DNA from: Nostocaceae cyanobacterium | Lineage (GTDB): Bacteria; Cyanobacteriota; Cyanobacteriia; Cyanobacteriales; Nostocaceae | Reading direction: 5' to 3' | Assembly: GCA_035299225.1 (NCBI GenBank) | Contig: DATGXB010000028.1 | Coordinates: 1 to 61,151, forward strand | DNA: 61,151 bases | Shown: in pieces, positions 17,511 to 55,585 of the stretch | Layout: every line of letters starts with the position of its first letter | Numbering within the stretch: the stretch's first letter is position 1 | The notes under the pieces: model-generated | Database searches by the model: none | Told to the model about the DNA's origin: nothing | The model's input: the letters and a program-made list of their open reading frames with translations, nothing else | Translations under genes and position numbers: made by a program

Positions 17511-17511
17511 G

Positions 17512-18970: not shown

Positions 18971-19125
18971 TAGGAAATAGGGAACAGGGAACAGGCAATA
19001 GGCAATAGGCAATAGGCAATAGGCAATAGGCAATAGGCAATAGGCAATTAGGAATTTCTTATTTTCCCCCTTGCCCCTCTGCCCCCCTGCCCCTCTGCCC
19101 TTCTGCCTCCTGTCCCCTGCCTCCT
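18971..19125. repeat. bipartite STR spacer: (GGGAACA)2(AGGCAAT)9 ... C-rich (CCCCTCTGCC)n
   Basis: Read directly. The C-rich array abuts the stop codon of the devC-like gene. Confidence 0.9.
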
Positions 19126-23953: not shown

Positions 23954-24469
23954 TTACCACCAACGAATTTGTAAATATCCTGGTTGTTCTGTCGTTAGTT
24001 CTTCTTCTGTTTGCCAATCTGTGGGTTTATAGGTTTTAAAAACTCGATCCCAAATATCAACACCCATACCAAAATTATGATGCCATTGGTTATATTTGTG
24101 GTGGACATGGTGAACTGGCATTTTTAACCAAATACAAAGTTTGGGGTGATCGTGTTGGAGTTGATGAGCATAAGCAGAAAATACTGTATAACCTAAGCAA
24201 CCTATTAACCAACTAATTTTAATGTACCAGTTTGCATCAGCTAGTTGTAAAGCTAGAAATGTTAAAAAGATGAGAGGTAAACCACCAAGAAGATAGTCTC
24301 GAAATTCTGGGATTACTCCCTGTCCAGTTCCATCGAGGTGGTGATCAATGTGAAAGCGGCAGGTTTTGGGGAATATGTGCATCAAGCGATGTCCCCAGTA
24401 TTCAACTAGGCTGGTAATCAGCAACGCTGCGATAAAAGTAACTGTGATCTGTGCAATATTAATTAACAT
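23954..24469 (-). CDS. fatty-acid hydroxylase superfamily membrane protein (Sur2/sterol-desaturase-like)
   Basis: 171 aa and hydrophobic, with histidine boxes HRLMH, HHLDG, HQLQHDH and HHVHHKYNQWHH. Confidence 0.6.
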   Translation of the reverse strand: MLINIAQITVTFIAALLITSLVEYWGHRLMHIFPKTCRFHIDHHLDGTGQGVIPEFRDYLLGGLPLIFLTFLALQLADANWYIKISWLIGCLGYTVFSAYAHQLQHDHPKLCIWLKMPVHHVHHKYNQWHHNFGMGVDIWDRVFKTYKPTDWQTEEELTTEQPGYLQIRWW

Positions 24470-26350: not shown

Positions 26351-26401
26351 CCCATTTTCAGATTAATACAAATAGCCAAGGGTAAAAGGGAAACTTAATT
26401 G

Positions 26402-38835: not shown

Positions 38836-39999
38836 TTAAACCGGTTGCCCAGCATCAAGAATACTTTGTAAAATTTCAGCAACTTCAAATACAGCTTGAT
38901 TTTGAATTGCAGTCACATTAGTTTTATAGCGTGACCAATTTTCAGGTTTTAAAAGTTCTGTAATAGCTGGAACAATTTGCTTAAAGCTTTTAACTGTGAT
39001 ACCGACTTGTTTTTCTAAAATCCAGTCAGCATTATATTTTTCATTCATCAGTGTTGCATAATTACGATCTACAATCACAGGTAAATTCATCACTAATGCT
39101 TCACTAATACTAATAGAACCAGGTTTACCAATAAAAAAATCAGCTAAATTCATCAAATACGCTACATCTTCAGTAAAACCTTGAATATGTTGTTTTAACT
39201 GAGTGGGACGCTCTTTTAATGCTTTTGCTAATTTTTGATTATTACCACAGAGAAAAATTACCTGTATTTTGTCGCTGATAGATTCTAAAGAACGGGCTAT
39301 ATCTAAAATGGTCGCACAACCTTTAGCCCCAAATGATACTATGGCAGTAATTTTATCTGGATCTAATCCTAAACGCTGTCTTTCTGTATGACGGTTGTCA
39401 GAAATTGGCCGATAAAATTGGGGATGAACAATCAAACCTGAAGTTTTTATAATATACTCTTCCCATACACCTAAATTACGGGCTTGATTTCTGGCTTTTT
39501 CTGTCCCACAAATAACATAACTTTTAGTTTCCGGTTCAATCCAAAAATGCGGCGGACAATCTGCAAAATCAGTTAAAATTGTCACCATTGGCGTGTCGGG
39601 TTGAACACGTTGTAAACTTTCCCAAATCGCTCGATTATGTAGAGGAATTAAAGAAATTACTAAATCAATTGGTGTATGCTGTCTCCAGTGTTTTTCTCCT
39701 AATTCCACTGCTTTTGAGTACAACAAATTAATAAAAAACTTATCCAGAAACATAGTCACAGGATGAAACCATGTCCAATCCATACTTAGCATATCGTTAT
39801 ATACATCATTGGCATCTACCCCAAATAATTTTTTGTAGGGGTCTAGCAATTTTGTCAGTTCACCAATATCTGTAACTGTAATTTGCCAAGGTCGGTTTTG
39901 TTGTTGGGCAATTGCTTTTAAAGCTCTTAAAGTAGCATAATGTCCCCCACCTGCATTGAGAGTAAAAATATGTAATGAATAGATTTTTTCCGCATTCAT
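38836..39999 (-). CDS. GT-B fold glycosyltransferase (MGDG-synthase/UgtP-like, GT28 family)
   Basis: N-terminal LNAGGGHYATLRAL resembles the UgtP/YpfP ANYGNGH motif. C-terminal GKPGSISISEALVMNLPVIV. Confidence 0.55.
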   Translation of the reverse strand: MNAEKIYSLHIFTLNAGGGHYATLRALKAIAQQQNRPWQITVTDIGELTKLLDPYKKLFGVDANDVYNDMLSMDWTWFHPVTMFLDKFFINLLYSKAVELGEKHWRQHTPIDLVISLIPLHNRAIWESLQRVQPDTPMVTILTDFADCPPHFWIEPETKSYVICGTEKARNQARNLGVWEEYIIKTSGLIVHPQFYRPISDNRHTERQRLGLDPDKITAIVSFGAKGCATILDIARSLESISDKIQVIFLCGNNQKLAKALKERPTQLKQHIQGFTEDVAYLMNLADFFIGKPGSISISEALVMNLPVIVDRNYATLMNEKYNADWILEKQVGITVKSFKQIVPAITELLKPENWSRYKTNVTAIQNQAVFEVAEILQSILDAGQPV

Positions 40000-40151: not shown

Positions 40152-41849
40152 CTACAGCGCAGTAATTTGGCTTTCCATTGCTGGAACTGCTGCTACTTGT
40201 AAATGAGGTTTAAAATGGTGTTCACGATTAAAAACACTATGAGGTAAAACTCTCAAAACCTCTTCGATGGTCGTTACTCCAGTTGTCACCTTTTGCGCTG
40301 CTGCTACACCAAAAGAAGTAAAATTTATCTCCTTTAAATAACGATTTAACTGAGTCATTGTTCCTTCATAAATTAACTCTCGCACTCTATCATCTACATC
40401 TAATAATTCTACAATTGCTTCCCGTCCTAAATACCCAGAATTAAAACACTTAGGACAGCCTCGACCCCGTTTCCAACTCTTGGTTGTAGTTGGTGTTGCT
40501 TCTAATCCTAGTCTACGTAAATCTGTGGCTGTAGGTGTATAGGGTTCTGCACAGTGGGGACAAACTCGACGGACTAAACGCTGTGCCACTATGCCCAAAA
40601 GTGCATCACTAATTAAACCAGGGTCGGGGCCAATATCTTTTAACCTGGGAATTGTACCTACAGCATCATTTGTATGTAAAGTAGTAAATACTAAGTGTCC
40701 AGTTAAAGCTGCTCTAACTGCTGTTTCTGCTGTTTCTGCATCCCGAACTTCTCCCAACATAATTACATCCGGGTCTTGACGGAGAATCGCCCGTAAACCC
40801 GCAGCAAAGGTCATTCCGGCGGCTTCGTTAACTTGGGTTTGGGTAATTCCTGCTAAGACGTATTCTACTGGATCTTCTACTGTGACGACGTTAACGGATT
40901 CTTTTGCTACATATTGTAAACTGGTGTAGAGAGTGCTAGTTTTTCCTGAACCTGTGGGACCAGTGAGAATAATCATGCCCTGTGGTTCACTTAACCATCT
41001 TTTATAAGTCTCTAATGTAGAACCGGAAAAGCCAAGTTTATTCATATCGGTGAAGGGGTTACGCTGTGGTAGTAAGCGTATTACTACTTTTTCCCCACCT
41101 ACACAGGGGAGGGTGCTGACCCGCATATCTAAACCTACTTCTGCCAAATCACTGGTATTATATTTTTCACCAATGCGACCATCTTGGGGACGGCGACTTT
41201 CAGCAATATCAATTTCTGACATGACTTTGAGGGCTACTACCACTTTCCGGCTGATTTCTAGAGGCAGGGTAGTAATGTGACGTAATACACCATCAATCCG
41301 GTAGCGGACTCTTAACCCATCGGGCATGGGTTCTAGGTGGATATCACTAGCACGGTTGCGTAAAGCTCCACTGATAATGGTTTTAACTCTTTCTATTTGG
41401 TCTGAGGCTTTGGAAAGATAGAGTTCGGTGATTTCTGTGATGTTTTCTGATTCTGATTCTTTGGTGAGGGGGTTAACTAGGGAGTCGGCGCTAATTTTAC
41501 TCAGGTCTAGATTTTGGGTGATGTACCAAGCTTTGTAACTTCTTTCTGTGATGGGGATGATTTTGATTTCTGTGGAAGTGCGATCGCCTAATTTTTTAAT
41601 TTCTTCTGGTGTTAATACCACTGGACTCCCCAAATAGTAACAATTACGCCACAACAACAAGGGAATCACTGGCGGTAATTCCTGGGGATTGGGGAATAAT
41701 TTAAAAAACCGAACGCTAACTTCCGAGTCTAAAAATTCCAGATTGATTTTTCCTGTCTCATCTATTAACAGTGTCAATGCTTGTTGACAATCAATTATAC
41801 CCTTTTTTAACTCCTGCCAAGGATTTAAGGGACTATCAAATAGTTGCAT
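40152..41849 (-). CDS. type II secretion / type IV pilus assembly ATPase (GspE/PilB family)
   Basis: Walker A GPTGSGKTST, Asp and His boxes, and a tetracysteine motif CPHC...CPKC. 565 aa. Confidence 0.85.
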   Translation of the reverse strand: MQLFDSPLNPWQELKKGIIDCQQALTLLIDETGKINLEFLDSEVSVRFFKLFPNPQELPPVIPLLLWRNCYYLGSPVVLTPEEIKKLGDRTSTEIKIIPITERSYKAWYITQNLDLSKISADSLVNPLTKESESENITEITELYLSKASDQIERVKTIISGALRNRASDIHLEPMPDGLRVRYRIDGVLRHITTLPLEISRKVVVALKVMSEIDIAESRRPQDGRIGEKYNTSDLAEVGLDMRVSTLPCVGGEKVVIRLLPQRNPFTDMNKLGFSGSTLETYKRWLSEPQGMIILTGPTGSGKTSTLYTSLQYVAKESVNVVTVEDPVEYVLAGITQTQVNEAAGMTFAAGLRAILRQDPDVIMLGEVRDAETAETAVRAALTGHLVFTTLHTNDAVGTIPRLKDIGPDPGLISDALLGIVAQRLVRRVCPHCAEPYTPTATDLRRLGLEATPTTTKSWKRGRGCPKCFNSGYLGREAIVELLDVDDRVRELIYEGTMTQLNRYLKEINFTSFGVAAAQKVTTGVTTIEEVLRVLPHSVFNREHHFKPHLQVAAVPAMESQITAL

Positions 41850-41946: not shown

Positions 41947-42774
41947 TTAAAGATGATGATCAAATTCCCCATTTTTGTGCAATTTCCCCACAAGTCCATC
42001 AAAATACCATTGTAGTAGGGGAGCGAAGAGGCTGTGCAACCGCATTAATAAAGTCATTTCTAATCCCGGTGTAATTACGAAGGCTTGGCGGGTGATTTCT
42101 TGTAAAATTTTCGTTGCTACTTGTTCGGCTGTCATGGTTTGGGCTGATTGGGTAATTAGTTTGGTTTCTGGGGGTTTGGTTTGATTTTCGGCGGCTAATT
42201 GGGGTGTGTCGGTGTCTGGTGGGTAGACTATGGAAATGTGCAAATTTTTGGTTTTCAGTTCACCCCGCAATGATTCAGCTAAACCCCGGACAGCAAATTT
42301 ACTAGGGCTATAGGGTGTATAACCATACAAACCAATTAAGCCGGCTCCTGAAGAAATGACGACAATATGACCTTTTTTCTGTTGTATCATTGCGGGTAAG
42401 GCGGCTTTAATACAGTAAAGAGTACCAAAGTAATTTATGGCCATTGTTTCTTCAAAAACCGTTAGGGGGAGTTCTGTAAAATATCCAGGTTGGGCAGTAC
42501 CAGCCGAGGTGATTAATAAATCTGGTGTACCTAATTGAGTTATAGCAGAGGCGATCGCTCTTTCTGCTTCTTCCCATTGAGAAACATCGGCGGAAATGGC
42601 TAATATTCGTTGTTCTGAGTGGGTTTTTAAGCTTTCCAGTTCTTTTTGGGTAGAGTTAAGTTTGGTTTGGTTACGGGCAATAATAGAGACATTAGCACCT
42701 GTTTGGATCAGAAGAGAGGCGATCGCTTTACCAATACCACTAGAACCACCCGTAATAATTGCGTGTTTATACAT
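41947..42774 (-). CDS. 3-ketodihydrosphingosine reductase (KDSR)-like short-chain dehydrogenase
   Basis: The true start is probably the ATG at 42774, since the ORF-track N-terminal MPPASCLLPPAS is STR-derived. ITGGSSGIGKAIA...NVSIIARNQTKL matches KDSR TGGSSGIGKCIA...ITLVARNEDKL. SKFAVRGLAESLRGELK...VYPPDTDTP...ENQTKPPETKLI matches KDSR SKFAIRGLAEALQMEVK...AYPPDTDTP...ENRTKPLETRLI, as recalled from the human KDSR sequence. Confidence 0.75.
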   Translation of the reverse strand: MYKHAIITGGSSGIGKAIASLLIQTGANVSIIARNQTKLNSTQKELESLKTHSEQRILAISADVSQWEEAERAIASAITQLGTPDLLITSAGTAQPGYFTELPLTVFEETMAINYFGTLYCIKAALPAMIQQKKGHIVVISSGAGLIGLYGYTPYSPSKFAVRGLAESLRGELKTKNLHISIVYPPDTDTPQLAAENQTKPPETKLITQSAQTMTAEQVATKILQEITRQAFVITPGLEMTLLMRLHSLFAPLLQWYFDGLVGKLHKNGEFDHHL

Positions 42775-42776
42775 TA

Positions 42777-42862
42777 GGCAATAGGAGGCAGGAGGCAGGA
42801 GGCAGGAGGCAGGAGGCATAAATAATTACTTCCTCATCTCCTCTTTCCCCCTGTTCCCTGTT
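42777..42862. repeat. STR block (AGGAGGC)5 ... CCCCCTGTTCCCTGTT
   Basis: Read directly. Lies between the CHRD and KDSR-like genes and creates the spurious N-terminal extension. Confidence 0.85.
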
Positions 42863-42866
42863 GTAA

Positions 42867-43565
42867 TTAACTTTTAACTGGACTTATTTTACCGCGAATA
42901 TCTCCAAAATATGTTTGTCCTTTAGTATGTAAATTAAAGTACAATTCGCTTCTTCTAGCAAACTGTTCCATCCCAGAAACGGTTTTTACTTTTTTGGATT
43001 TATCTAATTTATCTGGTGCATTTGCTGCGTCTGATGCAATTAGACATCCTGACAGGAAAACACCTAAAGGATCATTGGGAGAATTAACAACTTTTTCTAT
43101 ATTTTCATTGGTAACTACTACTGAAAAATGATTATCAGCAAAATTCTGTTGAATGTCTCCAGACAATGCAAAATCAACTAGAATTGGACCTAATTCATCC
43201 GGTTTACCACAGTGAATATGAAACATATTGATATCTTTTATGTTTACACCTTCAATATGAACATCAACAAAAGCTTTACTTAAATCTTTGGTAAATTTTA
43301 CTGTTCCATGTCCCTTTGATTTGCGCTCACTTCTGAGTAAAGAAGGGGCTGTAGATTGAAATTTTGGTGGGATATATTTTGGTGTATCTTTCTCTTCACC
43401 TGGTTCTTGCTGAGGAGTCAAAAAAGCTTCGTAAACAGAACCAATTTCTTCACCTTTCGGTATTTTACTTTGTGCAAAAGCCTTTTTTGGTTGTAGGGGT
43501 AATACAGTTAAGCAGACAAAAGCCAGCAAACAAATCAAGACAGTGAATATATATTTACTACGCAT
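42867..43565 (-). CDS. secreted CHRD-domain protein
   Basis: N-terminal signal peptide (MRSKYIFTVLICLLAFVCLTVLP). CHRD-like motif FHIHCGKPDELGPILVDF. Confidence 0.45.
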   Translation of the reverse strand: MRSKYIFTVLICLLAFVCLTVLPLQPKKAFAQSKIPKGEEIGSVYEAFLTPQQEPGEEKDTPKYIPPKFQSTAPSLLRSERKSKGHGTVKFTKDLSKAFVDVHIEGVNIKDINMFHIHCGKPDELGPILVDFALSGDIQQNFADNHFSVVVTNENIEKVVNSPNDPLGVFLSGCLIASDAANAPDKLDKSKKVKTVSGMEQFARRSELYFNLHTKGQTYFGDIRGKISPVKS

Positions 43566-43733: not shown

Positions 43734-46700
43734 TTAAGAAATGTAGCATTTTTTCAAAGCCGTTATAGTTTGATTAATTTGTGTTTCTGTGTGCAAACAA
43801 CTAATAAAAAAGCGCAGACGTGCAGCATCATTAGGGACAGCAGGATAAATCATTGGTTGAACGTTGATTCCAGCTTGGAAGAGTGCGTGAGATAAGCGAA
43901 TACAGTTTAGAGAATCTCCCAAAACAATGGGAATAATCGGAGAATTTTGGCTTGTGGATGTGTTCCAACCTTGTGCTTGAGCTAGTTGCAAAAATTGATG
44001 CGATCGCTCTTGCAAAATTTTCACTCGTTCTGGTTCTGATTTCAGTAACCGCAGAGATGCTAAAGCCGCAGCAGTATTAGCAGGGGATAATCCTACACTA
44101 TAAACAAACCCGGGAGCAGTATATTTTAAATAATTTACCAAAGCCTTAGAACCAGCAATATATCCCCCACAACTAGCAAAAGCTTTGCTTAATGTCCCCA
44201 TCCACAAATCTACTTGATTTCGTTCTATATTAGAAAATTCACCAATACCCCGGCCATTTTCACCTAATACCCCAATAGAATGGGCTTCATCTACCATTAA
44301 AAAGGTTTTATGTCGTTTTTTCATTTCAATAAATCGGGGTAAATCTGGGATATCTCCATCCATACTATAAATACCTTCAATTACTATTAAAACTCGCCGA
44401 TAATTTTGGCGTTGGTTTTGTAGCATTTTATCTAAAAATTGCCAATCATTATGGGGAAAAGGTACGGATTTAGCACCAGATAAAGCACAACCTTGTAAAA
44501 TACTATTGTGACTGAAGGCATCGTAAAAAATTAAATCTTGGGAATTGAACAAATGACCGATAGTAGTAACATTGGTAGCGTGACCACTAACATATACAAT
44601 GCAATCTTCTACACCAATAAATTCTGCTAATTCTTGTTCTAATTCTTGATGTAGTAAACGTTCACCTGATGCCAAACGACTGGCACAAACTGATGTGCCA
44701 TAGCTATCAATTGCTGCCTTTGCTGCTGCGGAAACTGTCGGATTTCCTGATAAGCCTAAATAGTTGTAACTGGAATAGTTAATTAGTGTTTGTCCTTGAA
44801 TTTGTGTACAATCTCTAGTTATGGATTCCTGGATTTGAAAATAAGGATTAGGAATTTCTAAAGTTTGAATTTGGGTTAATTTTGCTTGGAGTTGGGCATA
44901 TTCTGGAAAAGATTCAATTTGATAATATTCAGAAGGAATTTGTGCTAAAGGCTGATTATGATCTTGAGAAAGTTCTTTAACTAGATATTGTGTTAAATTA
45001 GCAATTGTTTCAAATGATTGCAGTGTAGAAATATTAAGTAAATATCCAGAATAGCTTTGTAAGTCTTGAATGAATTGTGTTGCTGTCAAAGAATCTAAAC
45101 CATAAGCTGCAAAAGATTCATTTTGGTTAATAGATTGAATAGAAATATTTAATTTTTTTGCCAACCATTGACAAATCCAATCTTGGATTGATTCTAAAGC
45201 ATAATCTTGATGATGTTTTGGAGAAATATCTATTACTTCTGAAGCTATTAAAGGTAAATTTCCTGCTAAGAAAGTCTCACGACAGAGAAACCGTTGTATT
45301 TTACCACTAGAAGTTTTAGGAAGAGTTCCTGGTTTAAGTAATAAAACTTGATATACTTGTAAATCATGTTCCATTAAAACGGCTTTTCTAATAGCTTTTA
45401 CTACTTCCTCCACTTGGATATTTCGCAAATAATTCCGCTTGACTTCACAAGCTACAAAAAGACGATTTTCTCCATCTATTTCCACCACAAAAGCGGCAAT
45501 ACTATGAAAACTTAATGCTGGATGGCAAGTTTCTACGGTTTGTTCAATATCTTGAGGATAATAATTTCTTCCCCGGATAATTAATATATCTTTAATCCGT
45601 CCAGTGACAAATAAACCTGCCTCATCATCCCAAAACCCTAAATCCCCAGTTCGCAAAAATGCTCCTTCTTTTGTATCTGCTAAATAAGCATAAAATGTTT
45701 GTTTTGTTAATTCTGCTTGTTGCCAATATCCTTGGGTGACACTTTCACCTTTAACCCAAATTTCCCCGATTTCTCCTGATGAACATTTGGTTAAGGAATC
45801 AGGATTTACAATAATCACAGTTTGACCAAGGACAGGATAGCCACAACTAACAATTTTACGGGTATTTTGAGTTTCTGTAGGGGAATTAATTACTTGATTT
45901 TTTTCTAAAGCTTTAGCGTCAAATATTTTAATTATAGGTGATTTTTCTTTAATTGCACCTGTTATTAATAAAGTTGTTTCAGCCATGCCATAGGAAGGAC
46001 GGAAAGCACTGGGATTAAATCCATAGGGGGCAAATGTATCAATAAAATCTGTAATAGTTTCTGCTCGTATAGGTTCAGCCCCATTAATGGCAATTTGCCA
46101 ACTGCTAAGGTTAAAATTAGTTAATTGTTCTGGATTAATCTTTTTAAATCTTTCTACACACAGATCATAAGCAAAATTAGGGCTGACTGTGACTGTAACT
46201 TGATAATTAGAAATTACTTTTAACCACAATATTGGGTTTTGTAAAAATGCCATTGGTGACATTAATATCACCGGAAATCCTACTAACAGGGGTTGAAGTG
46301 TTCCCCCAACTAAGCCCATATCATGGTAAAGTGGTAGCCAATTTAAAACTATCCCCTCAGCACTTTCTTGATAGCTATGTTGGATAACTTGACAGTTATG
46401 AACTAAATTCTTGTGAGAAACTATTACCCCTTTAGGAGTGCCTGTAGAACCAGAAGTATATTGTAAAAATGCGGTGGTATTAGGTTCTATTTTTATATGG
46501 GTAAAATCTTCAGCTTTAGTATTTATCTGGTCGGTTAAAACCCATTGTAAATGTGTAAATATCTCTTCCTTTTGGGCAATGAGTTGAAAAATATTTGTGT
46601 TAGTTAATAATAAGTTAGCTTGGGCATCATGAACAATGGTTTGTAATCGGGATAACTTCTGGTTGCGTTTGGGTGGATAAGCTGGGACAGCAATGATTCC

Positions 46701-46979
46701 TGCATATAAACAGGCAAAAAAACTGATAACAAAATCTAATCCTGATGGATAAAGTAGTAACGCTCTATTACCTGGTGTAGAGATGGTTTGCAAATGGGCA
46801 GCAACATATTTTATTTTATCTTCTAGCTCTTGATAAGTTAAACAATCGGTTTGTATTTCTCCATCTTCGAGAAATATATAGGCTTTTTGGTGTGGTTGGT
46901 GTTTTGCCCTGTAGTGTAATAAATCTACAAGGGTTTTGTCCTGGAGAGGAAAATCAGCTTTAATTTGGGAGGTTATCAT
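43734..46979 (-). CDS. tridomain FAAL - acyl carrier protein - alpha-oxoamine synthase (serine-palmitoyltransferase/AONS-like, PLP-dependent)
   Basis: Residues 1-570 are a FAAL (YTSGSTGTPKGVIVSHKN). Residues ~585-665 are an ACP (AAYGLDSLTATQF, phosphopantetheine Ser). Residues ~700-1081 are an AONS/SPT-type aminotransferase class II (NYSSYNYLGLS, GHATNVTTIGHL, PLP-Lys motif GTLSKAFASCGG). Confidence 0.85.
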   Translation of the reverse strand: MITSQIKADFPLQDKTLVDLLHYRAKHQPHQKAYIFLEDGEIQTDCLTYQELEDKIKYVAAHLQTISTPGNRALLLYPSGLDFVISFFACLYAGIIAVPAYPPKRNQKLSRLQTIVHDAQANLLLTNTNIFQLIAQKEEIFTHLQWVLTDQINTKAEDFTHIKIEPNTTAFLQYTSGSTGTPKGVIVSHKNLVHNCQVIQHSYQESAEGIVLNWLPLYHDMGLVGGTLQPLLVGFPVILMSPMAFLQNPILWLKVISNYQVTVTVSPNFAYDLCVERFKKINPEQLTNFNLSSWQIAINGAEPIRAETITDFIDTFAPYGFNPSAFRPSYGMAETTLLITGAIKEKSPIIKIFDAKALEKNQVINSPTETQNTRKIVSCGYPVLGQTVIIVNPDSLTKCSSGEIGEIWVKGESVTQGYWQQAELTKQTFYAYLADTKEGAFLRTGDLGFWDDEAGLFVTGRIKDILIIRGRNYYPQDIEQTVETCHPALSFHSIAAFVVEIDGENRLFVACEVKRNYLRNIQVEEVVKAIRKAVLMEHDLQVYQVLLLKPGTLPKTSSGKIQRFLCRETFLAGNLPLIASEVIDISPKHHQDYALESIQDWICQWLAKKLNISIQSINQNESFAAYGLDSLTATQFIQDLQSYSGYLLNISTLQSFETIANLTQYLVKELSQDHNQPLAQIPSEYYQIESFPEYAQLQAKLTQIQTLEIPNPYFQIQESITRDCTQIQGQTLINYSSYNYLGLSGNPTVSAAAKAAIDSYGTSVCASRLASGERLLHQELEQELAEFIGVEDCIVYVSGHATNVTTIGHLFNSQDLIFYDAFSHNSILQGCALSGAKSVPFPHNDWQFLDKMLQNQRQNYRRVLIVIEGIYSMDGDIPDLPRFIEMKKRHKTFLMVDEAHSIGVLGENGRGIGEFSNIERNQVDLWMGTLSKAFASCGGYIAGSKALVNYLKYTAPGFVYSVGLSPANTAAALASLRLLKSEPERVKILQERSHQFLQLAQAQGWNTSTSQNSPIIPIVLGDSLNCIRLSHALFQAGINVQPMIYPAVPNDAARLRFFISCLHTETQINQTITALKKCYIS

Positions 46980-47200
46980 TATGACAGCTTCTTGAATAAT
47001 TGATATTACAAAACTTCATTCAATTTTTAGTTAAATATAGGCTATAGTTTACTGCTATAAACATTTTTTCGCCCGAATAGTGGTGAAATTCCTTAACTAA
47101 CAGGCTACCTCTGGTTACAATAGCATCCAAGTTCAAGCGGTTGATAATAAAATTTTTTGCCCCCTGCTGCCCTGCACTACCCTCCATTAATACTGCAAAT

Positions 47201-50200
47201 ATGCAACACTTAAAAACCTTGAAAAATAGAGAACCCATTGCGATAGTCGGTATTGGTTGCCGCTTTCCAGGTGGTGCGAATAACTCAGAAGCATTTTGGA
47301 ACTTGTTGATTAATGGTGTAGATGCGATCGCCGAAGTACCTGCAAGCCGTTGGAATATTAGTAACTTTTATCACCCTGACACCGCCAAGCCAGGGAAAAT
47401 CCGCACTCGTTGGGGTGGGTTTATTGAAGATATAGATCAATTTGACGCGCAATTTTTCGGCATTTCCCCCAGAGAAGCGGCTTGTATTGATCCCCAGCAA
47501 AGGTTATTGCTAGAGGTCGTTTGGGAAGCTTTGGAAGATGGGGGACAGGTAGCAGCAAAACTGGCTAATTCTCAAACTGGTGTATTTATCGGCATATCGG
47601 GTAGTGATTATCACCATATTCAACTCAATGTAAGCGATCGCCATTTAATCAATGCTTACACACATTTAGGGGGTGTCCACTGCATCGCTGCCAACCGGAT
47701 TTCCTATGTTTTAAATCTCCAGGGACCCAGTTTAGCAGTTGATACCGCTTGTTCTTCCTCCCTGGTAGCGGTTCATTTAGCTTGTCAAAGCATCTGGAAT
47801 GGGGAATCAAGCGCCGCTATTGCTGGGGGTGTGAATGCCATGCTCAAACCAGAAACCAGCATTGGATTTTCTAAAGCCTCCATGCTTTCACCAGATGGAC
47901 GTTGTTTTACTTTTGACGCACGCGCTAACGGATATGTCCGGGGTGAGGGTGTGGGTGTGGTATTTTTAAAGCCTTTATCTCAAGCTCAAGCTGACAAAGA
48001 TCCGATTTATGCGGTAATAAAAGCTACCGCTGTTAACCAAGATGGCCAAACCAACGGCATTACAGTTCCTAACGGCAAAGCCCAAGAAGCGGCTATTTTA
48101 TCAGCTTGTGAACAAGCGGGAATTTTACCAGAACAGGTGCAATACGTAGAAGCCCACGGCACAGGAACACCAGTAGGTGATCCCATTGAAACTAAAGCTT
48201 TAGGTCATGTTTTGGGGAAAAATCGGCCAGCAGGAGAACATTGTTTAATCGGTTCGGTAAAAACGAATATTGGGCATTTAGAGCCAGCTTCGGGCATTGC
48301 GGGTTTGATTAAAGTGGCTTTGGCGATTAAAAATGGTCAAATTCCGCCAAACTTAAATTTACAAACACCAAACCCTGAAATTCCTTTTACTGAGTTGCGG
48401 TTGCGTGTACCAACAAACCCAGAACCCTGGCCGGATGAAGAGAAGCCACGTATAGCCGGCATCAATTCTTTTGGTTTTGGGGGAACTAATGCTCATACGA
48501 TTTTAGCAGAAGTTCCTCAGCCTCCAGCCCCACTTCGACTTCGCTCTGTTACCACCGCTAAAAAATCCTATTTATTACCTTTATCAGCCCGCAGTGAAGC
48601 CGCACTGAAAGATTTAGCAGCAGCTTATAAAATATTTTTGACAAATACAAGTTTATCATTATCGGATATTTGTTATACTGCCACTTTCTACCGAGATCAT
48701 CATGACCACCGTTTAGCAGTGGTGGGAAGTTCTCCCGCAGAAATAACCGCTAACTTAGCAGGGTTTTTGGCTGAAGAAACCCGCTTGAGAATTTCTGAGG
48801 GGCGGGTTATTGTTGATAAGTTGCCTAAGTTGGCTTTTGTTTTCTCTGGAATGGGTCAACAATGGTGGGCAATGGGACGGAGTTTATTAGCAGAGGAATC
48901 AGTATTTCGAGAAAAAATACAACAGTGTGACCAATTATTGAGACAATATACCGACTGGTCACTGTGGGAGGAGTTAACAGCAAGTGAGGAAAGTTCGCGC
49001 ATTAATGAAACTCAAATCGCTCAATGTGCGATTTTTTCCGTACAAGTTGCCTTGGCCGCTTTATGGGAAAGTTGGGGTATTGTCCCAGCCGGCATAGTTG
49101 GCCATAGTGTGGGAGAAGTGGCAGCTGCTTATGTTGCGGGGGTGTTAAGTTTAGAAGATGCTGTATGTGTAATTTTCCACCGTAGCCGCTTACAAGCTAC
49201 CAGTGCCGGACAAGGAAAAATGTTAGCAGTGGGGTTATCTCTGGAAGAAGCTGAAAAGGTCATATCTGGGTATGAAGATAAAGTCGCTGTGGGTGCGGTT
49301 AACAGTCATAATTCTGTCACCCTCTCAGGAGATAGTCAGGCTTTAGGAGAAATTGCCCAAACTTTAGAACAGCAAGAGGTTTTTTGTCGTTTCCTCAAGG
49401 TAGAAGTTCCCTATCACAGCCCCTTAATGGAACATCTCAAGGCAGATTTATTACATTCTTTATCAGAAATTACACCAAAATCAGCCGCTATTCCTCTCTT
49501 TTCTACAGTCACAGGTCAGCAAGTTGCAGGAACGGAAATAGATGGAGCATACTGGGGGCAAAATATGCGAAATCCAGTATTATTTGCTGCCGCAGTAGAA
49601 GGAATGATGGAAGCTGAGTATAATTTGTTCTTAGAAATTGGTGCTCATCCAGTTTTAGCTAACTATATTTCTGAGTGTTTTACTCAAGCAAATCAAGCAG
49701 TAACGGTTTTACCTTCCCTGCGTCGGCAAGAATCTGATTTAGTAATAATGCTGGGGAGTTTTGGTAAACTTTATACTGTAGGATATGCAGTTGATTGGAA
49801 TCGGCTGGATTTAGATGGTCAGTTTGTGCGTGTTCCGTCCTATCCTTGGCAAAAAGAGCAATATTGGCATGAGTCAGAAGAATCACAACAGGCTAGAATA
49901 GGGGAAGGTTTGAGGCGATCGCTCTTAGGCAAACAAGTACATCCTTTATTGGGAAGTCGTCTAGAATCTGTACAATTGTTGTGGAATGCCACAATAGACC
50001 AAAGCAACCTCACCTATTTAAAAGACCATCGCATCCAGGGATCAGTAGTTTATCCCGGTGCAGGTTACATTGAAATGGTCTTGGCTACCGCTAAGGAGCT
50101 TTTTGGTGCAGGAAGTTGTATTTTAGAAGATGTAGAATTTTTGCAAGCTTTATTTTTACCCGATGAACCAATTACATTACAGTTAAGCGTAGAAGACCAA

Positions 50201-53200
50201 AATCAAAACAGTTTCAATATTCATAGTTTGGTTAAAGGTGAAAAACCTGCTTGGGTACGTCATGCTACAGGTAATTTACTCAAATTGCAAAATCATTTAC
50301 CTGAACCCATCATATTAAATGAGATTCGCGCTAATTGTCATCAAGAAATATCTCAACATCTTCTTTATCAACAATTCCAAGAAATCGGTTTAGAATATGG
50401 GGCAAATTTCCAAGGAATTGCAAAACTTTGGACTGGTGAAAAAGAAGCACTTGCTCAAATCAAATTACCCGAAAATCTCACAGCAGAATTACCAAATTAT
50501 CAGTTACATCCAACCTTATTAGATGCTTGTTTTCAAGTGCTAATTGGTACTGTTTCCACTAAACAAACTTATCTACCGATAAAAATTGAAAAATTCCGTT
50601 TTTACCAATCTCCTGGTTTACAAGTCTGGACTTATGCGCGGTTAGTGACAGAAAACACCAAGCAAATTACAGGAGATATACAAATAATAGATGCTAATGG
50701 TAATATATTAGTAGAAATTCAAGGTTTCTGCTGTCGTTCCCTTCCCCAAGCACAGGAATTTGTTACAAAACCAGAAAATTTACTTTATCAATATCAATGG
50801 GAATTAAAATCACGTCCTGACCAAAAATTAATTATCAATGCTGCTTATCTTCCTTCTCCTCACCAAATTACTGAAAATCTCCACAGTGAAGCTATGAGAT
50901 TAAGTCAGCAATTAGGACGTAAAATTTATTATGAACAAGTAAATTCCCAAGTAAATAATTTATCCGTTAGTTATATTATTCATGCCTTTCAACAATTAGG
51001 CTGGAAACCAGAATTACATCAACAAATTAACACAGATACCTTAATAGAACAGTTGGGTATTGCATCTCAGCATCGGCGTTTATTTGGTCGGTTGTTGGCA
51101 ATTTTAGAAAAAGAAAATATCTTAACATTAATATCTGATCAAAACTGGAAAATCAACCAAATTCCTGAAGTCAAAGAAATAAAACAACTTTGGCAAAATC
51201 TATTTACTCAATTTCCCGCATATCAAGCCGAACTGACTTTACAGCGACGTTGCGGTGAGAAATTAGCCCAAGTTTTACGCGGAGAAATTGACCCCTTACA
51301 ACTAATTTTTCCAGAAGGTTCGCTCACCGCATCAGAACAACTTTACCAAGATTCTCCTAATTATAAAATTTACAATATTTTAGTACAAAAAGCCGTTGCC
51401 TTAGCATTAGAACATTTACCAGCCGGTCGCAAAATCAGAATCTTAGAAATTGGTGCGGGTACTGGTGCGCTAACTTATTATATTTTGCCAAAATTACCAG
51501 CTAAACGCACAGAATATATATTTACAGATGTAACTCAAGTTTTTGTCAATTCTGCTCAACAAAAATTTAGCAATTATCCTTTTATTAATTATTCCGTTTT
51601 AGATATTGAAGCTGATCCAATTTCTCAAGGTTTTGATGCACATTCTTTTGATTTGATTGTAGCATCTGATGTACTGCACGCAACTACTAATTTACCTTCT
51701 ACCTTAGAAAATATTAAACAACTTTTAGCTTCCCAAGGATTATTAATATTTATAGAATTAACAAATGCACCCTATTGGGCAGATTTAGTATTTGGAATGC
51801 TTCAAGGTTGGTGGCTATTTGCAGATGAGAGAAAAATTAATCCTTTACTTTCAGCTTTACAATGGCAAGATTTACTGATAAAATGCGGATTTACAGAAGT
51901 TGATAGCCTTGCAGATAGCGACGGAACTTTTGCATCTGTGCATCAGGTATTTTTGGCTCAAACTCCCCAAATTAAAATACAAGGTAGAGACGTTCCATGG
52001 AACGTCTCTACAACCGAAAATATTCAAAACGTTTCTACAGCAGAAAATATTCAAAACATCTCTATATCTGAGAATATTAATTTACCAACTCAAAAAACGG
52101 GAACTTGGTTAATTTTTGGTGATAAATTTGGAGTTGGACAAAAGTTAGCTGAAAAATTGAAAGAAAATTCACAAACTCCCATTTTCATTTTACCCGGAAA
52201 TGAGTTTCAACAAATCGCTGATGATTGTTTCCAAATTCGTCCAGCACATCTAGAAGATATCCAAAGAATAGTACACACTAATATTACTGGTATTATTCAT
52301 CTTTGGAGTTTGGATATTCCAGCAGTTGCAGAAACAACTTTAACTGAACTAGAACAAGCTCAAAAATTAGGTTGTTTAACTATACTTTACCTAGTCCAAA
52401 CTTTAGAAAAAATCGGCATTTCCCCCCGCTTAGTATTAGTAACAGCCGACACTCAAGCTATAGGAGAAACTCCAGCTTTAGAAGTTGGTCAATCTCAATT
52501 ATGGGGTTTAGGACGGGTAATTGATAATGAGTTTCCTAATTTGCGTTGTTTAAGAATTGATATCAGTTCTAAAAAAGATATTCGAGAAATTAATGCGCTA
52601 TTTGCTGAACTGTGGTCAGAAGATAGAGAAGATGAAATTGTTTTCCGGGGTGAAGCGCGTTATGTCCATCGCTTAGTATCAGTAGTAGCAGGAGAAATTA
52701 ATTCAAAATCTGCAATTAAAAATCAACCATTTCGTTTAGAGATCACCCAACCAGGAATTTTAGACAACCTCACCTTAAAACCATTAGCAAGAAAGCAACC
52801 AGAAGCGGGAGAAGTGGAAATAGAGGTTTACGCTACAGGGTTAAACTTTAAAGATGTAGCAAAAGCAATGAACTTGCTGGCTGATGTGAACTTAGAAGGA
52901 AATTTTTCCGGGCGATCGCTTGGTTTGGAATGTGCTGGTAAAATTACAGCTATTGGTGCAGGTGTGACAAATTTTCAAATTGGTGATGAAGTTATAGCCA
53001 GCGCTCCTCACAGCTTCAGTTCCCACACTATCACAGATGCCCGTCTAGTTGTCCACAAACCCCAAAATATCAGTTTTGAAGAAGCTGCAACCATTCCGGC
53101 GGTTTTCCTCACTGCTTATTATGCCCTGCATTATTTGGGTAGAATAACTAAAGGGGAGAAAGTTCTGATTCATGCCGCAGCAGGTGGAGTTGGTCTAGCA

Positions 53201-55585
53201 GCTATCCAACTAGCGCAAAAAGCAGGTGCGGAAATATTTGCTACCGCAGGCAGTGCAGAAAAACGGGAATTACTCCAAGCTTTAGGTGTTAAATATGTCA
53301 TGGATTCCCGTAGTTTAGATTTTGCTGACCAGATCATGCAATACACCAATAATAAAGGTGTAGATATCGTCCTTAACTCTTTAGCTGGTGCAGCTATTCC
53401 CAAAAGTCTTTCTGTCTTAGCACCCTATGGACGGTTTATAGAAATTGGTAAACGGGATATTGATGATAATAATAAATTAGGTTTACGACCTTTTCAGAAA
53501 AACCTCTCATTTTTCGCGGTAGACTTAGACCGACTGTGGAAAGAACGCGCAGAGTTAGCCGGTTCTTTATTTGCTGAAGTAATGCAACTTTTCCGAGAAC
53601 AGACTTTACACCCCCTACCTCACCGAGTTTTCCCCATCTCTCAGGTAAAATCAGCTTTCCGTTACATGGCTCAAGCTAAACACATCGGTAAAGTTGTAAT
53701 TTCCTTGCAAAACCCTGATGTAATTATTCCCCCACCACAGGAAAAAATTACATTTCATCAACATGGTACTTATTTAATTACTGGCGGTTTAGGTGGATTT
53801 AGTTTAGCATTAGCTCAATGGTTAGTAGAACATGGTGCGGGAAATTTAGTGTTGATGGGCAGAAGTGGTCAAGTTTCCCCCGATGCTGAGTTAATTATTA
53901 ACAGTTTAAAAGCCGCCGGTACTAATGTTGTGGTAGCTAAAGCCGATGTTAGTCAAGCCGACCAAGTGGCACGGGTGCTTAAAGATATCAAAGAATCTCT
54001 ACCACCATTACGGGGAATATTCCATGCAGCTTTAGTATTAGATGATGCCATCTTACTGCAACTCAATCAAGAACGATTCCAAAAAGTAATTGCTCCCAAG
54101 GTTGATGGTGCTTGGAATTTACACACCCAAACTTTAGATATACCCTTAGATTGCTTTGTGCTATTTTCTTCTGTAGCCGCAACCATTGGTAATCCTGGTC
54201 AGGGTAATTATGTAGCTGCAAGTGTTTTTCTTGATACATTAGCACATTATCGCCGCAACTTAGGGTTAAAAGCCTTAAGCATTAACTGGGGAGTTATCGC
54301 TGATGTGGGTTATGCTGCTCAAAAGTCCCACATAGGAGAACATTTCCAACGTTTGGGACTAAAACCGCTACAGTCAAAACAAGCTTTACAGGTTTTAGAA
54401 AAATTGCTACAAGCGGACGCAGTACAAACCGCAGTAGCACCGGTAGATTGGTTACAATGGCATCAAGCTTATCCGGCTGGTATATCTCCCCGTTTTTCTT
54501 ACCTCACCAGCCAAGAAAGCTTAACTCAAGAAGCAAGTAACCCTAATATTGATACTGATTCTTTCCGTAATCTCCTATTAGCTGCAACAGACCGCGAACA
54601 GTTATTATCATCCCGTTTGCTGGAACAAGTTGCGAGGGTTTTGGGAACTTCTGTGGCTAAATTAGATACTTCCAAATCATTAACGAATTTGGGGTTAGAT
54701 TCCCTCATGGCCGTAGAACTGAGTAACCGCATCAAAAATGAACTAGAAGCCAAAATACCAGCCATGAAAATCATGCAGGGGTTGAATATTTCCCAACTGA
54801 CAAGCGAAATCATGGAACAGTTAACTGGAGCTGCTAAACAAAACGTTTCCGTGAAAACAGGTGACTGGTTAGTGTTCCCCCGACCAAATTCTGAAGCGCG
54901 TTTGCGGTTGTTTTGCTTCCCTTATATTAACGGTAGTAGTTCGGTATTTAGTCAATGGCCAGAGAAATTACCCCCAGATATTGAAGTTTGTGCTGTACAA
55001 TTACCAGGAGGAAGCGATCGCCTCAATGAACCACCCATCCAAACCTTAACTTCCCTCATAGAAACACTTGCAAATGCTCTCATCCCTAATTTAAACAAAC
55101 CCTTTGCCTTTTATGGTCACAGTTTAGGCGCATTAATCAGCTTTGAACTAGCTCGATATCTGCGTCAAAAAACCGGTAAAATCCCTGTTCATCTGTTTGT
55201 TGCTGCTTTACAAGCTCCCCAACTACCCCACCCTTACCCCTCTATATCTCACCTCTCCGACTCCCAAGCCTTAAAAAAAGCCTCTCTGTTGGACTTACCC
55301 GAAGCATTTGGACAAAATCCTGAGTTAATGCAGTTATTATTACCAGGTCTAAAAGCCGGAATTGCCATTTCTCAAAATTATACTTATGCACCAGATAAAC
55401 CCTTAGAATGTCCCATTACCGCTTTTGGTGGAAATCAAGATAAAGTCATCACTCAAGAGCATTTATTAGCTTGGGAAAAACAAACTTCTAGTACATTCAA
55501 TTTACAAATCTTCCCTGGTAATCATTTATTTCTACACACTGACCAAAACCTACTACTACCTTATTTAGCCACTTACTTGAATTAG
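47201..55585 (+). CDS. single-module, fully reducing type I polyketide synthase, domain order KS-AT-DH-cMT-ER-KR-ACP-TE
   Basis: The ORF opens at 47141 (MIIK), but the in-frame ATG at 47201 (MQHLKT) is the probable start. KS Cys motif DTACSSSL near 47750. AT GHSVGE near 49100. DH HxxxGxxxxP (HPLLGSRLE...YPGAGY) near 49945. SAM motif LEIGAGTGAL near 51445. ER VLIHAAAGGVGLAAIQLA near 53170. KR ITGGLGGFSLALAQW near 53770. ACP LGLDSLMAVEL near 54700. TE GHSLGALIS near 55120. Confidence 0.9.
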   Translation: MQHLKTLKNREPIAIVGIGCRFPGGANNSEAFWNLLINGVDAIAEVPASRWNISNFYHPDTAKPGKIRTRWGGFIEDIDQFDAQFFGISPREAACIDPQQRLLLEVVWEALEDGGQVAAKLANSQTGVFIGISGSDYHHIQLNVSDRHLINAYTHLGGVHCIAANRISYVLNLQGPSLAVDTACSSSLVAVHLACQSIWNGESSAAIAGGVNAMLKPETSIGFSKASMLSPDGRCFTFDARANGYVRGEGVGVVFLKPLSQAQADKDPIYAVIKATAVNQDGQTNGITVPNGKAQEAAILSACEQAGILPEQVQYVEAHGTGTPVGDPIETKALGHVLGKNRPAGEHCLIGSVKTNIGHLEPASGIAGLIKVALAIKNGQIPPNLNLQTPNPEIPFTELRLRVPTNPEPWPDEEKPRIAGINSFGFGGTNAHTILAEVPQPPAPLRLRSVTTAKKSYLLPLSARSEAALKDLAAAYKIFLTNTSLSLSDICYTATFYRDHHDHRLAVVGSSPAEITANLAGFLAEETRLRISEGRVIVDKLPKLAFVFSGMGQQWWAMGRSLLAEESVFREKIQQCDQLLRQYTDWSLWEELTASEESSRINETQIAQCAIFSVQVALAALWESWGIVPAGIVGHSVGEVAAAYVAGVLSLEDAVCVIFHRSRLQATSAGQGKMLAVGLSLEEAEKVISGYEDKVAVGAVNSHNSVTLSGDSQALGEIAQTLEQQEVFCRFLKVEVPYHSPLMEHLKADLLHSLSEITPKSAAIPLFSTVTGQQVAGTEIDGAYWGQNMRNPVLFAAAVEGMMEAEYNLFLEIGAHPVLANYISECFTQANQAVTVLPSLRRQESDLVIMLGSFGKLYTVGYAVDWNRLDLDGQFVRVPSYPWQKEQYWHESEESQQARIGEGLRRSLLGKQVHPLLGSRLESVQLLWNATIDQSNLTYLKDHRIQGSVVYPGAGYIEMVLATAKELFGAGSCILEDVEFLQALFLPDEPITLQLSVEDQNQNSFNIHSLVKGEKPAWVRHATGNLLKLQNHLPEPIILNEIRANCHQEISQHLLYQQFQEIGLEYGANFQGIAKLWTGEKEALAQIKLPENLTAELPNYQLHPTLLDACFQVLIGTVSTKQTYLPIKIEKFRFYQSPGLQVWTYARLVTENTKQITGDIQIIDANGNILVEIQGFCCRSLPQAQEFVTKPENLLYQYQWELKSRPDQKLIINAAYLPSPHQITENLHSEAMRLSQQLGRKIYYEQVNSQVNNLSVSYIIHAFQQLGWKPELHQQINTDTLIEQLGIASQHRRLFGRLLAILEKENILTLISDQNWKINQIPEVKEIKQLWQNLFTQFPAYQAELTLQRRCGEKLAQVLRGEIDPLQLIFPEGSLTASEQLYQDSPNYKIYNILVQKAVALALEHLPAGRKIRILEIGAGTGALTYYILPKLPAKRTEYIFTDVTQVFVNSAQQKFSNYPFINYSVLDIEADPISQGFDAHSFDLIVASDVLHATTNLPSTLENIKQLLASQGLLIFIELTNAPYWADLVFGMLQGWWLFADERKINPLLSALQWQDLLIKCGFTEVDSLADSDGTFASVHQVFLAQTPQIKIQGRDVPWNVSTTENIQNVSTAENIQNISISENINLPTQKTGTWLIFGDKFGVGQKLAEKLKENSQTPIFILPGNEFQQIADDCFQIRPAHLEDIQRIVHTNITGIIHLWSLDIPAVAETTLTELEQAQKLGCLTILYLVQTLEKIGISPRLVLVTADTQAIGETPALEVGQSQLWGLGRVIDNEFPNLRCLRIDISSKKDIREINALFAELWSEDREDEIVFRGEARYVHRLVSVVAGEINSKSAIKNQPFRLEITQPGILDNLTLKPLARKQPEAGEVEIEVYATGLNFKDVAKAMNLLADVNLEGNFSGRSLGLECAGKITAIGAGVTNFQIGDEVIASAPHSFSSHTITDARLVVHKPQNISFEEAATIPAVFLTAYYALHYLGRITKGEKVLIHAAAGGVGLAAIQLAQKAGAEIFATAGSAEKRELLQALGVKYVMDSRSLDFADQIMQYTNNKGVDIVLNSLAGAAIPKSLSVLAPYGRFIEIGKRDIDDNNKLGLRPFQKNLSFFAVDLDRLWKERAELAGSLFAEVMQLFREQTLHPLPHRVFPISQVKSAFRYMAQAKHIGKVVISLQNPDVIIPPPQEKITFHQHGTYLITGGLGGFSLALAQWLVEHGAGNLVLMGRSGQVSPDAELIINSLKAAGTNVVVAKADVSQADQVARVLKDIKESLPPLRGIFHAALVLDDAILLQLNQERFQKVIAPKVDGAWNLHTQTLDIPLDCFVLFSSVAATIGNPGQGNYVAASVFLDTLAHYRRNLGLKALSINWGVIADVGYAAQKSHIGEHFQRLGLKPLQSKQALQVLEKLLQADAVQTAVAPVDWLQWHQAYPAGISPRFSYLTSQESLTQEASNPNIDTDSFRNLLLAATDREQLLSSRLLEQVARVLGTSVAKLDTSKSLTNLGLDSLMAVELSNRIKNELEAKIPAMKIMQGLNISQLTSEIMEQLTGAAKQNVSVKTGDWLVFPRPNSEARLRLFCFPYINGSSSVFSQWPEKLPPDIEVCAVQLPGGSDRLNEPPIQTLTSLIETLANALIPNLNKPFAFYGHSLGALISFELARYLRQKTGKIPVHLFVAALQAPQLPHPYPSISHLSDSQALKKASLLDLPEAFGQNPELMQLLLPGLKAGIAISQNYTYAPDKPLECPITAFGGNQDKVITQEHLLAWEKQTSSTFNLQIFPGNHLFLHTDQNLLLPYLATYLN
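51984..52082 (+). repeat. 28-bp perfect palindrome (GTAGAGACGTTCCATGGAACGTCTCTAC) followed by three imperfect 27-bp tandem repeats, in-frame within the PKS cMT-ER linker
   Basis: Palindrome checked base by base (14+14, centred on CCATGG). The repeats encode VSTTENIQN / VSTAENIQN / ISISENINL. A near-copy of the palindrome is at 10277-10298. Confidence 0.85.

Follow-up and report, generated by a model that had tools for sequence, protein, structure and literature searches.

A stand-alone polyketide synthase in a Nostocaceae contig

The stretch of DNA considered here, called the window, comprises the 61,151 nucleotides from position 1 of contig DATGXB010000028.1 in the GenBank assembly GCA_035299225.1 of a Nostocaceae cyanobacterium. 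It encodes, on the plus strand, a stand-alone monomodular type I polyketide synthase (PKS), identified from its open reading frame (ORF) and from Pfam, NCBIfam and solved-structure matches. The gene (47201..55585) is one unbroken ORF, which starts at an ATG at 47201 or a TTG at 47141 and ends at 55585. Counted from the ATG, as are all residue numbers below, the protein is 2794 amino acids in length. The monocistronic gene converges with glmS, and a 221-bp intergenic region (46980..47200) separates it from a divergent operon whose nearest gene encodes a fusion of a fatty acyl-AMP ligase (FAAL), an acyl carrier protein (ACP) and an alpha-oxoamine synthase (AONS). Weak promoter-like hexamers, which are consensus matches only, lie on both strands of this region, and scans of the PKS flanks gave no terminator and no promoter beyond such weak matches. 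With a GC content of 0.40, against 0.38 for the window, the gene bears no sign of foreign origin.

Placement of the domains by Pfam, far beyond chance, confirmed the order KS-AT-DH-MT-ER-KR-ACP-TE within one module that a first-pass annotation had read from the sequence, and additionally located a structural pseudo-ketoreductase, so that the full order is KS-AT-DH-cMT-psiKR-ER-KR-ACP-TE. The ketosynthase (KS; 47231..48361, residues 11-387; 4e-99) carries the motifs DTACSS, EAHGTGT and KTNIGH, its Cys-His-His triad is complete, and a KS-AT linker follows it (residues 390-525). In the acyltransferase (AT; 48836..49786, residues 546-862; 2e-80), GHSVGE is accompanied by VPYH, here within EVPYHSP, which replaces HAFH or YASH. 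The dehydratase (DH; 49940..50755, residues 914-1185; 1e-41) contains HRIQGSVVYP, GLEYGANF and LLDACFQ. The C-methyltransferase (cMT; 50897..51895) is made up of a lid (HTH_51, residues 1233-1310) and a core (residues 1404-1565; Methyltransf_12, 8e-19), and is followed by the pseudo-ketoreductase subdomain (psiKR; 52139..52588, residues 1647-1796; Beta-ketacyl_N, 1.9e-7). Next come the enoylreductase (ER; 52805..53701, residues 1869-2167) with HAAAGGVG, and the ketoreductase (KR; 53765..54301, residues 2189-2367; 3.5e-67) with the LDD motif of the B-type and the catalytic Tyr. The ACP (54614..54802, residues 2472-2534) carries GLDSL, and the module ends in a type-II-like thioesterase (TE; 54905..55546, residues 2569-2782; 5e-36) with GHSLGA and GNHLF.

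All of the catalytic motifs that were searched for are present, and they are conserved in 12 full-length orthologues, including ILEIGAGTG and DVLHAT of the methyltransferase. The elements of a cis-AT module are all found, namely GHSxG in the AT, HxxxGxxxxP and DxxxQ in the DH, the NADPH motif in the ER, the Tyr in the KR and DSL in the ACP; no residue of the methyltransferase, ER or KR is missing from the active sites checked. The KS and AT are the only ones in the window. The KS is preceded by a stretch of only about 10 residues, which leaves no space for an N-terminal loading or docking domain.

In animal fatty acid synthase (FAS), the methyltransferase is an inactive pseudo-domain. The S-adenosylmethionine (SAM) motif LEIGAGTGAL, whose integrity had been noted at first pass, is intact in the window PKS, where motif I reads ILEIGAGTG at residue 1414. 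The region aligns to the crystallised, active C-methyltransferase of CurJ (5THY) at 2e-94, and the His of DVLHAT and the Glu of IFIELT fall opposite chain positions 304 and 330, which presumably correspond to the residues published for CurJ as His280 and Glu306. Such a His-Glu dyad is used by the C-methyltransferases of PKSs (PMC9821293). By these alignments, the domain is an intact, CurJ-type C-methyltransferase. The AT most likely loads malonyl units, as the aromatic residue of VPYH lies at the Phe position of malonyl-specific ATs, a placement that would fit malonyl loading combined with a methyl group derived from SAM.

The best solved relatives of the TE are RifR (7e-40) and RedJ (1e-39), followed by Mycobacterium tuberculosis TesA, human thioesterase 2, YbtT and SrfD, and no TE of a type I PKS reached 1e-5 among its solved-structure matches. 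The relatives listed belong to the type II or hydrolytic thioesterases, which fits the release of a free acid. By homology, the domain belongs to the type-II-like, hydrolytic class rather than to the classical type I PKS TEs. The earlier proposal that the enzyme releases a free acid through its TE is thus supported as to the class of the domain, and release itself is a prediction from that class.

The linker between the cMT and psiKR contains a 27-bp tandem repeat (52001..52078; 2.9 copies, 82% matches) that encodes NVSTTENIQ-like units. A relative with 94% identity (P0001) is 26 amino acids shorter exactly at this interval, and the copy number of the repeat thus appears to vary.

Relatives and classification of the PKS

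The order KS-AT-DH-(cMT)-ER-KR-ACP is the ordinary one of bacterial cis-AT PKSs. It is shared by many bacterial proteins, mostly cyanobacterial, among the best protein-database matches, and the first-pass statement of a different order in canonical bacterial PKSs does not hold. Orthologues of full length that also bear the TE, with 60-73% identity, occur in Dendronalium, Scytonema, Rhizonema, Brasilonema, Tolypothrix, Nostoc and Desmonostoc, and the best match in a genome is 73% identical (Nostoc minutum and Dendronalium). The loci of the orthologues in Dendronalium (L001), Scytonema PCC 10023 (L002/L003), Nostoc C052 (L004), N. minutum (L010) and Rhizonema (L012) each have a single KS. The C-terminus of PKSs of this type varies, from a thioester reductase (P0025) to a FAAL (P0099) to no further domain in many; database matches of the last kind, without a TE, are numerous and 2.5-2.6 thousand amino acids (kaa) in length.

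Among solved structures, the whole PKS scores highest with mycocerosic acid synthase (MAS; 1163 bits), followed by DEBS-derived constructs and CurL (about 780-880), LovB (760) and animal FAS (752). Its top NCBIfam match is Pks2, at 1426 bits under a cut-off of 2400. A placement by homology with the HglE-type synthases of heterocyst glycolipids, named at first pass as a finding that would overturn the FAS-like assignment, was not observed: the PKS reaches 399 bits against the PfaA model TIGR02813, whose cut-off is 1010, and its architecture differs from the PfaA-like one, in which ACPs stand in tandem and the module has neither ER nor MT, so that an HglE/PfaA-type synthase of heterocyst glycolipids or polyunsaturated fatty acids was rejected. 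A synthase of the olefin type was likewise rejected, as the PKS is without a sulfotransferase and has another domain order.

The AT motif sets apart a group of these enzymes. Of the best 120 protein matches (P0001-P0120), nearly all of those with lengths of 2.3-3.3 kaa carry [ED]VPYH, whereas none of those above 3.7 kaa does. The same split recurs in the genomic loci L010-L088 between single-KS and multi-KS contexts, and the motif is spread over Cyanobacteria, Alphaproteobacteria, Verrucomicrobia and Actinobacteria. To our knowledge, the AT motif GHSVGE...[ED]VPYH has not been described. It may mark a clade of stand-alone, perhaps iterative, PKSs, and could then serve as a cheap annotation marker that separates stand-alone, probably iterative, PKSs from the modules of assembly lines.

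Taken as a whole, the enzyme is a fully reducing type I PKS of bacterial kind that consists of one stand-alone module, and its product is probably a methyl-branched fatty acid. Bacterial single-module PKSs with a FAS-like order are already established in SupA, SwfA, WcbR/RkpA and SgaA (PMC3908369, PMC4245539, PMC10308959, PMC12134224). The architecture alone is ordinary for bacteria, and the novelty lies in a TE-bearing member of an uncharacterised clade and in its gene context; no literature was found on the exact domain string.

Lipid genes of the window

The divergent neighbor of the PKS, FAAL-ACP-AONS (43734..46979, minus strand), is a tri-domain protein of 1081 amino acids recognized by Pfam and by FAAL and SPT/KBL/BioF models. 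The lysine that binds pyridoxal phosphate in the AONS domain is conserved in GTLSKAF, aligned to KBL and SPTLC2. On the same strand follow a short-chain dehydrogenase/reductase (SDR; 41947..42819, 290 amino acids) resembling 3-ketodihydrosphingosine reductase, with TSC10 (8jat) as its best solved relative at 9.6e-31, and a lipid glycosyltransferase (38836..39999, 387 amino acids) that by Pfam and models is like the synthases of monogalactosyl- and diglucosyl-diacylglycerol. A second, GT28-like glycosyltransferase (26399..27676, plus strand, 425 amino acids) lies beside a stand-alone FAAL of 601 amino acids (FAAL601; 24545..26350, plus strand), both found with models. Domain searches identified a small protein of the fatty-acid hydroxylase superfamily (23954..24469, minus strand, 171 amino acids) and a Polysacc_synt-type flippase (20326..21675, plus strand, 449 amino acids).

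A DevBCA set (16110..20291, minus strand) consists of DevB (16110-17285), a DevA-like ABC ATPase (17512-18936) and DevC (19125-20291). NCBIfam gives 373 bits for DevC (cut-off 290) and 321 for the DevB family (cut-off 129), and by these matches the set is a putative exporter of the glycolipid type. The DevA-like ATPase bears two C-terminal domains that bind cyclic nucleotide monophosphates (cNMP), a fusion that also occurs in Dendronalium and suggests a cNMP-regulated exporter.

In the window, this set of lipid genes is broken by insertions, namely a PIN/Uma2 pair, a T2SSE ATPase and an unrelated block of about 11 kb. In Fischerella PCC 9605 (L007 10001-22760), the set is contiguous, with 72-83% identity to the window genes and no PKS present, and subsets of it occur in four further loci. 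The SDR is next after the AONS gene in L007, L008 and L089, and in Fischerella the orthologue of the glycosyltransferase at 38836-39999 stands directly after the SDR. Judged from these gene orders, FAAL-ACP-AONS, the SDR, the two glycosyltransferases, FAAL601, the hydroxylase, the flippase and DevBCA form a conserved Nostocales lipid locus, which on its own has the look of an undescribed pathway for an amino-glycolipid. No literature was found on the combination of a FAAL with an oxoamine synthase, in cyanobacteria or elsewhere.

Links between the PKS and the lipid genes

Co-location of genes was scored within 10 kb of an orthologue. The divergent arrangement of the PKS and FAAL-ACP-AONS is found in the window and in the 94% relative. 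Another arrangement around the PKS is common to Dendronalium sp. ChiSLP03b and Nostoc minutum NIES-26, where the PKS is directly followed by orthologues of DevB, the DevA-cNMP fusion, DevC, the flippase, the hydroxylase and FAAL601, with 70-78% identity. In Dendronalium, the only genome where this was checked, FAAL-ACP-AONS and the SDR lie on another contig. The PKS thus adjoins one half of the gene set in the window lineage and the other half in these two genomes, which is unlikely to have arisen by chance. Orthologues of FAAL601 adjoin the PKS-linked block in these two genomes, and they are also present in the PKS-less loci L007, L009 and L091.

Relatives of the AONS domain are also associated with PKSs elsewhere. 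In nine loci, oxoamine synthases with 52-65% identity to the window AONS domain stand directly after monomodular PKSs, and in L097 one is fused to a PKS module. At seven loci in other phyla, a monomodular cMT-bearing PKS has immediately downstream of it a free-standing synthase with 52-60% identity to the AONS domain, and pairs of an SgaAB-like PKS and a synthase occur on plasmids of Pseudomonas and Caballeronia, with synthases 55% and 52% identical to the AONS. A metagenome scan with the FAAL-ACP-AONS protein returned 10 loci, mostly of unrelated adenylating enzymes, of which L097 alone was informative. This locus (4982-12540) encodes a fusion of 2239 amino acids, KS-DH-ER-KR-ACP-oxoamine synthase, whose synthase is 65% identical to the window AONS and is followed by an SDR with 61% identity; Pfam found no AT domain in the fusion protein. 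A P450 gene flanks the L097 fusion.

FAALs are linked to such PKSs as well. The protein P0099, encoded on a metagenome contig (L094 10001-19836), joins a KS-AT-DH-MT-ER-KR-ACP module, 53% identical to the window PKS, to a C-terminal FAAL and is without a TE. Its FAAL is closest to that of the tri-domain protein (53% identity), and a stand-alone ACP gene follows. The P0099 gene is preceded by a transporter of the ABC/MacB type. Several other related PKSs have FAAL genes nearby.

Proposed pathway and comparison with known systems

The domain content, motifs, stand-alone status, neighborhoods and homologies of the PKS are secure, and from them a pathway may be inferred, including its malonyl specificity, iterativity, chain length, number of methyl groups, hydrolytic release, FAAL recipient, amino acid and final lipid. 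As the PKS has no loading module, docking region or partner module, its KS must be primed in trans, in this scheme by a fatty acyl thioester. The chain would then be extended with malonyl units, the methyltransferase would place a SAM-derived methyl group on the alpha carbon of the beta-ketoacyl intermediate, and the B-type KR, the DH and the ER would fully reduce each unit. A single module that stands alone makes iterative use plausible, and by analogy with MAS or SgaA the module probably cycles more than once. The type-II-like TE would release the product by hydrolysis, as a saturated free fatty acid with methyl branches. This acid would be adenylated by a FAAL, the prime candidate being that of the tri-domain protein, and loaded onto the ACP of the same protein. 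An alpha-amino ketone would arise when the AONS condenses the acyl-ACP with an amino acid. Reduction of this ketone by the SDR, which resembles a ketosphinganine reductase, would yield a long-chain amino alcohol, and the remaining genes (the second FAAL, the hydroxylase, the two glycosyltransferases, the flippase and DevBCA) would acylate, hydroxylate, glycosylate, flip and export the lipid.

Among characterized systems, CurJ and JamJ are modules of colinear multimodular lines with ATs of the HAFH type. The window PKS is alike in the domain order around the methyltransferase (KS-AT-DH-cMT-...-KR-ACP), and the KS-AT region of CurL is a strong match, but the window PKS is a sole module with a VPYH AT and a type-II-like TE. 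The best full-length solved relative, MAS, is an iterative enzyme that turns a fatty acyl primer into methyl-branched acids and works with the FAAL FadD28; its branches come from methylmalonyl-CoA through an AT of the YASH type, and it has neither a C-methyltransferase nor a TE. The stand-alone KS-AT-DH-ER-KR-ACP organization is shared, and the window PKS adds the cMT and a fused TE. Its AT, with GHSVGE and VPYH rather than YASH, further differs, and its methyl group would come from SAM.

A PKS of another stand-alone type, SupA, reportedly has the order KS-AT-DH-MT-ER-KR-ACP. Like SwfA, it is a small FAS-like-order enzyme of sponge symbionts, for which methyl-branched fatty acids have been suggested as products (PMC4245539, PMC3908369). 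Compared by description, SupA and SwfA resemble the window PKS but have no reported fused TE, belong to other host phyla and stand in another gene context. A parallel in gene content is found in Pseudomonas fluorescens, where the monomodular, fully reducing PKS SgaA, the serine palmitoyltransferase (SPT) SgaB and the SDR SgaC make long-chain sphinganines (PMC12134224). The window likewise has a monomodular PKS beside an SPT-like AONS, in divergent orientation, and an SDR resembling 3-ketodihydrosphingosine reductase (KDSR). In the SgaAB type, to which the pairs of a WcbR/RkpA-type PKS and an oxoamine synthase are related, the synthase is free-standing and is presumably fed directly by the ACP of the PKS, whereas the window AONS is fused to FAAL-ACP. 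Since the window PKS has a TE and the AONS its own FAAL-ACP, the hand-over would go by way of a free acid.

A similar logic is known from fungi, in which the pathways of fumonisin (Fum1/Fum8/Fum13), sphingofungin and myriocin lead from a PKS through a synthase to an SDR. The likeness extends to a chain made by a methylating, highly reducing PKS, its condensation with an amino acid by an oxoamine synthase and the reduction of the ketone by an SDR of the KDSR type (for the SDR parallels, see PMC12134224). The fungal systems are eukaryotic and not close homologues, have no FAAL-ACP relay or type-II-like TE domain, and make toxins rather than exported glycolipids. A relay of the proposed kind has a partial counterpart in RedL, which has an adenylation-ACP pair at its N-terminal end and an oxoamine synthase domain at the other. 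An acyl chain is passed from a carrier protein to this multidomain enzyme by the type II thioesterase RedJ (PMC4147253). Unlike the window TE, RedJ is free-standing and acts on an ACP of the FAS type, RedL has its own KS-AT, and the product is a pyrrole precursor.

Alternative explanations

The first-pass annotation had taken the PKS for a metazoan or fungal type of enzyme, and its acquisition from a eukaryote, for example, would fit the linear order, which is that of animal FAS, and the presence of animal FAS and LovB among the solved-structure matches. MAS, the DEBS constructs and CurL all outscore these two, however, the methyltransferase is closest to that of the cyanobacterial CurJ, the best homologues are bacterial with the same architecture, and the GC content matches the window, so that an enzyme foreign to bacteria is hardly credible and was rejected. 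Scarcely more probable is a terminal module whose partner modules lie elsewhere. Last modules typically carry a TE at the C-terminus and many relatives of 2.5-2.6 kaa have no TE, but the window holds one KS and one AT in 61 kb, the orthologous loci are single-KS, and the stretch before the KS is too short for docking; on these grounds a colinear multimodular assembly line was rejected. The AT motif also sets the clade apart from multimodular matches, and the TE is not of the type I kind.

Two other explanations accept the enzyme as a bacterial single module and differ on its connection with the lipid genes. One module can perform either a single elongation or iteration, as has been said of SwfA (PMC3908369), and the FAAL-ACP of the tri-domain protein, or FAAL601, might prime the PKS with a C14-C18 acid, which would gain one methylated and reduced C2 unit before the TE frees a 2-methyl acid. 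P0099, with its FAAL fused to a TE-less PKS and its adjacent ACP gene, reads naturally as having a loading didomain, and the FAAL genes near several related PKSs point the same way. The retention of FAAL601 and FAAL-ACP-AONS in loci without the PKS argues that priming it is not their main task, and the characterized stand-alone relatives, MAS as top solved match and SgaA (PMC12134224), are iterative, which makes a single-round extender an unlikely, minority explanation. The PKS may instead be an orphan that makes a branched lipid for another use, such as an envelope lipid, and may have come to lie beside the AONS by an accident of rearrangement. The neighborhoods of the orthologues vary, those in Scytonema PCC 10023 and Nostoc C052 being without the AONS, SDR, FAAL601 and hydroxylase nearby; the window lipid genes are themselves interrupted by the PIN/Uma2, T2SSE and 11-kb insertions; and the window arrangement is common only to the 94% relative. 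This would leave to coincidence both juxtapositions, in the window lineage and in Dendronalium and N. minutum, and the fusions and adjacencies elsewhere that tie the AONS/SDR family and this type of FAAL to monomodular PKSs, and unrelated neighbors are likewise improbable.

The preferred explanation, to which a probability of about 0.5 is assigned, is that a long-chain base is built from a methyl-branched acid that comes from the PKS and is recaptured by a FAAL. Of the first-pass suggestion that the PKS supplies the adjacent FAAL, the connection is plausible from the comparative context, and the direction of transfer is the predicted part. Several observations weigh against it. In Scytonema PCC 10023, Nostoc C052 and Rhizonema, none of the lipid genes lies within 10 kb of the PKS orthologue, and these three do not appear among the named close orthologues of FAAL-ACP-AONS; conversely, five loci have the lipid genes and no PKS within 10 kb. 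As each occurs without the other, neither depends on the other, and the PKS looks like an optional add-on to the lipid locus rather than an obligatory part of it. The AONS domain scores about equally with KBL, SPT and BioF, which favors no particular amino acid, serine included. SgaA-like PKSs are 34-35% identical to the window PKS, with a YAFH AT, no methyltransferase motif and no TE (SgaA itself was compared by description), and iterativity and substrate are extrapolated to a VPYH clade that has no characterized member. The TE-less fusion P0099 could also mean that a FAAL-ACP primes the PKS instead of receiving its product.

Only two lipids of the sphingoid or amino-glycolipid kind have been reported from cyanobacteria, with no sphingolipid enzymes characterized (PMC8895605). 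A wider claim is that the window holds the first recognizable genetic basis of a cyanobacterial sphingolipid-like glycolipid, with the PKS recruited in some Nostocales and coupled by free-acid release and FAAL recapture; it is put forward tentatively, the balance of probability being against it. Should the coupling be real, it would provide a testable set of genes for cyanobacterial sphingoid or amino-glycolipids. It would also represent a third wiring of PKS-derived bacterial sphingolipids, by a PKS-TE and FAAL recapture, beside the fused and the adjacent forms, and a bacterial counterpart of the fumonisin and sphingofungin logic of fungi in a decoupled version of SgaAB.

Other features of the window

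Two further genes belong to the operon of the tri-domain protein, both on the minus strand. The T2SSE (PilB/GspE-like) ATPase (40152..41849) is inserted in the AONS-SDR-glycosyltransferase operon, and a CHRD-domain protein of 232 amino acids (42867..43565), found with Pfam, occurs only in this operon lineage. Both are absent from the operon versions of Fischerella, Dendronalium and Nostoc, and the CHRD gene is common only to the 94% relative. Between the flippase and the hydroxylase, the plus-strand genes for a PIN-domain protein and Uma2, a putative restriction endonuclease (22029-23120), are probably a mobile or toxin-type insertion, and a further PIN gene lies at 15092-15487. An ORF of 696 amino acids (28453-30543, plus strand) is without a Pfam match, and DJ-1/PfpI, EthD and DJ-1/PfpI genes come after it. 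The window also encodes a NACHT STAND NTPase (57997-60030, minus strand), a fusion of a Ser/Thr kinase with WD40 repeats (6279-8009, plus strand) and an SNF2-family helicase of 1418 amino acids (10545-14801, plus strand), which are typical of Nostocales genomes and appear unrelated to the PKS.

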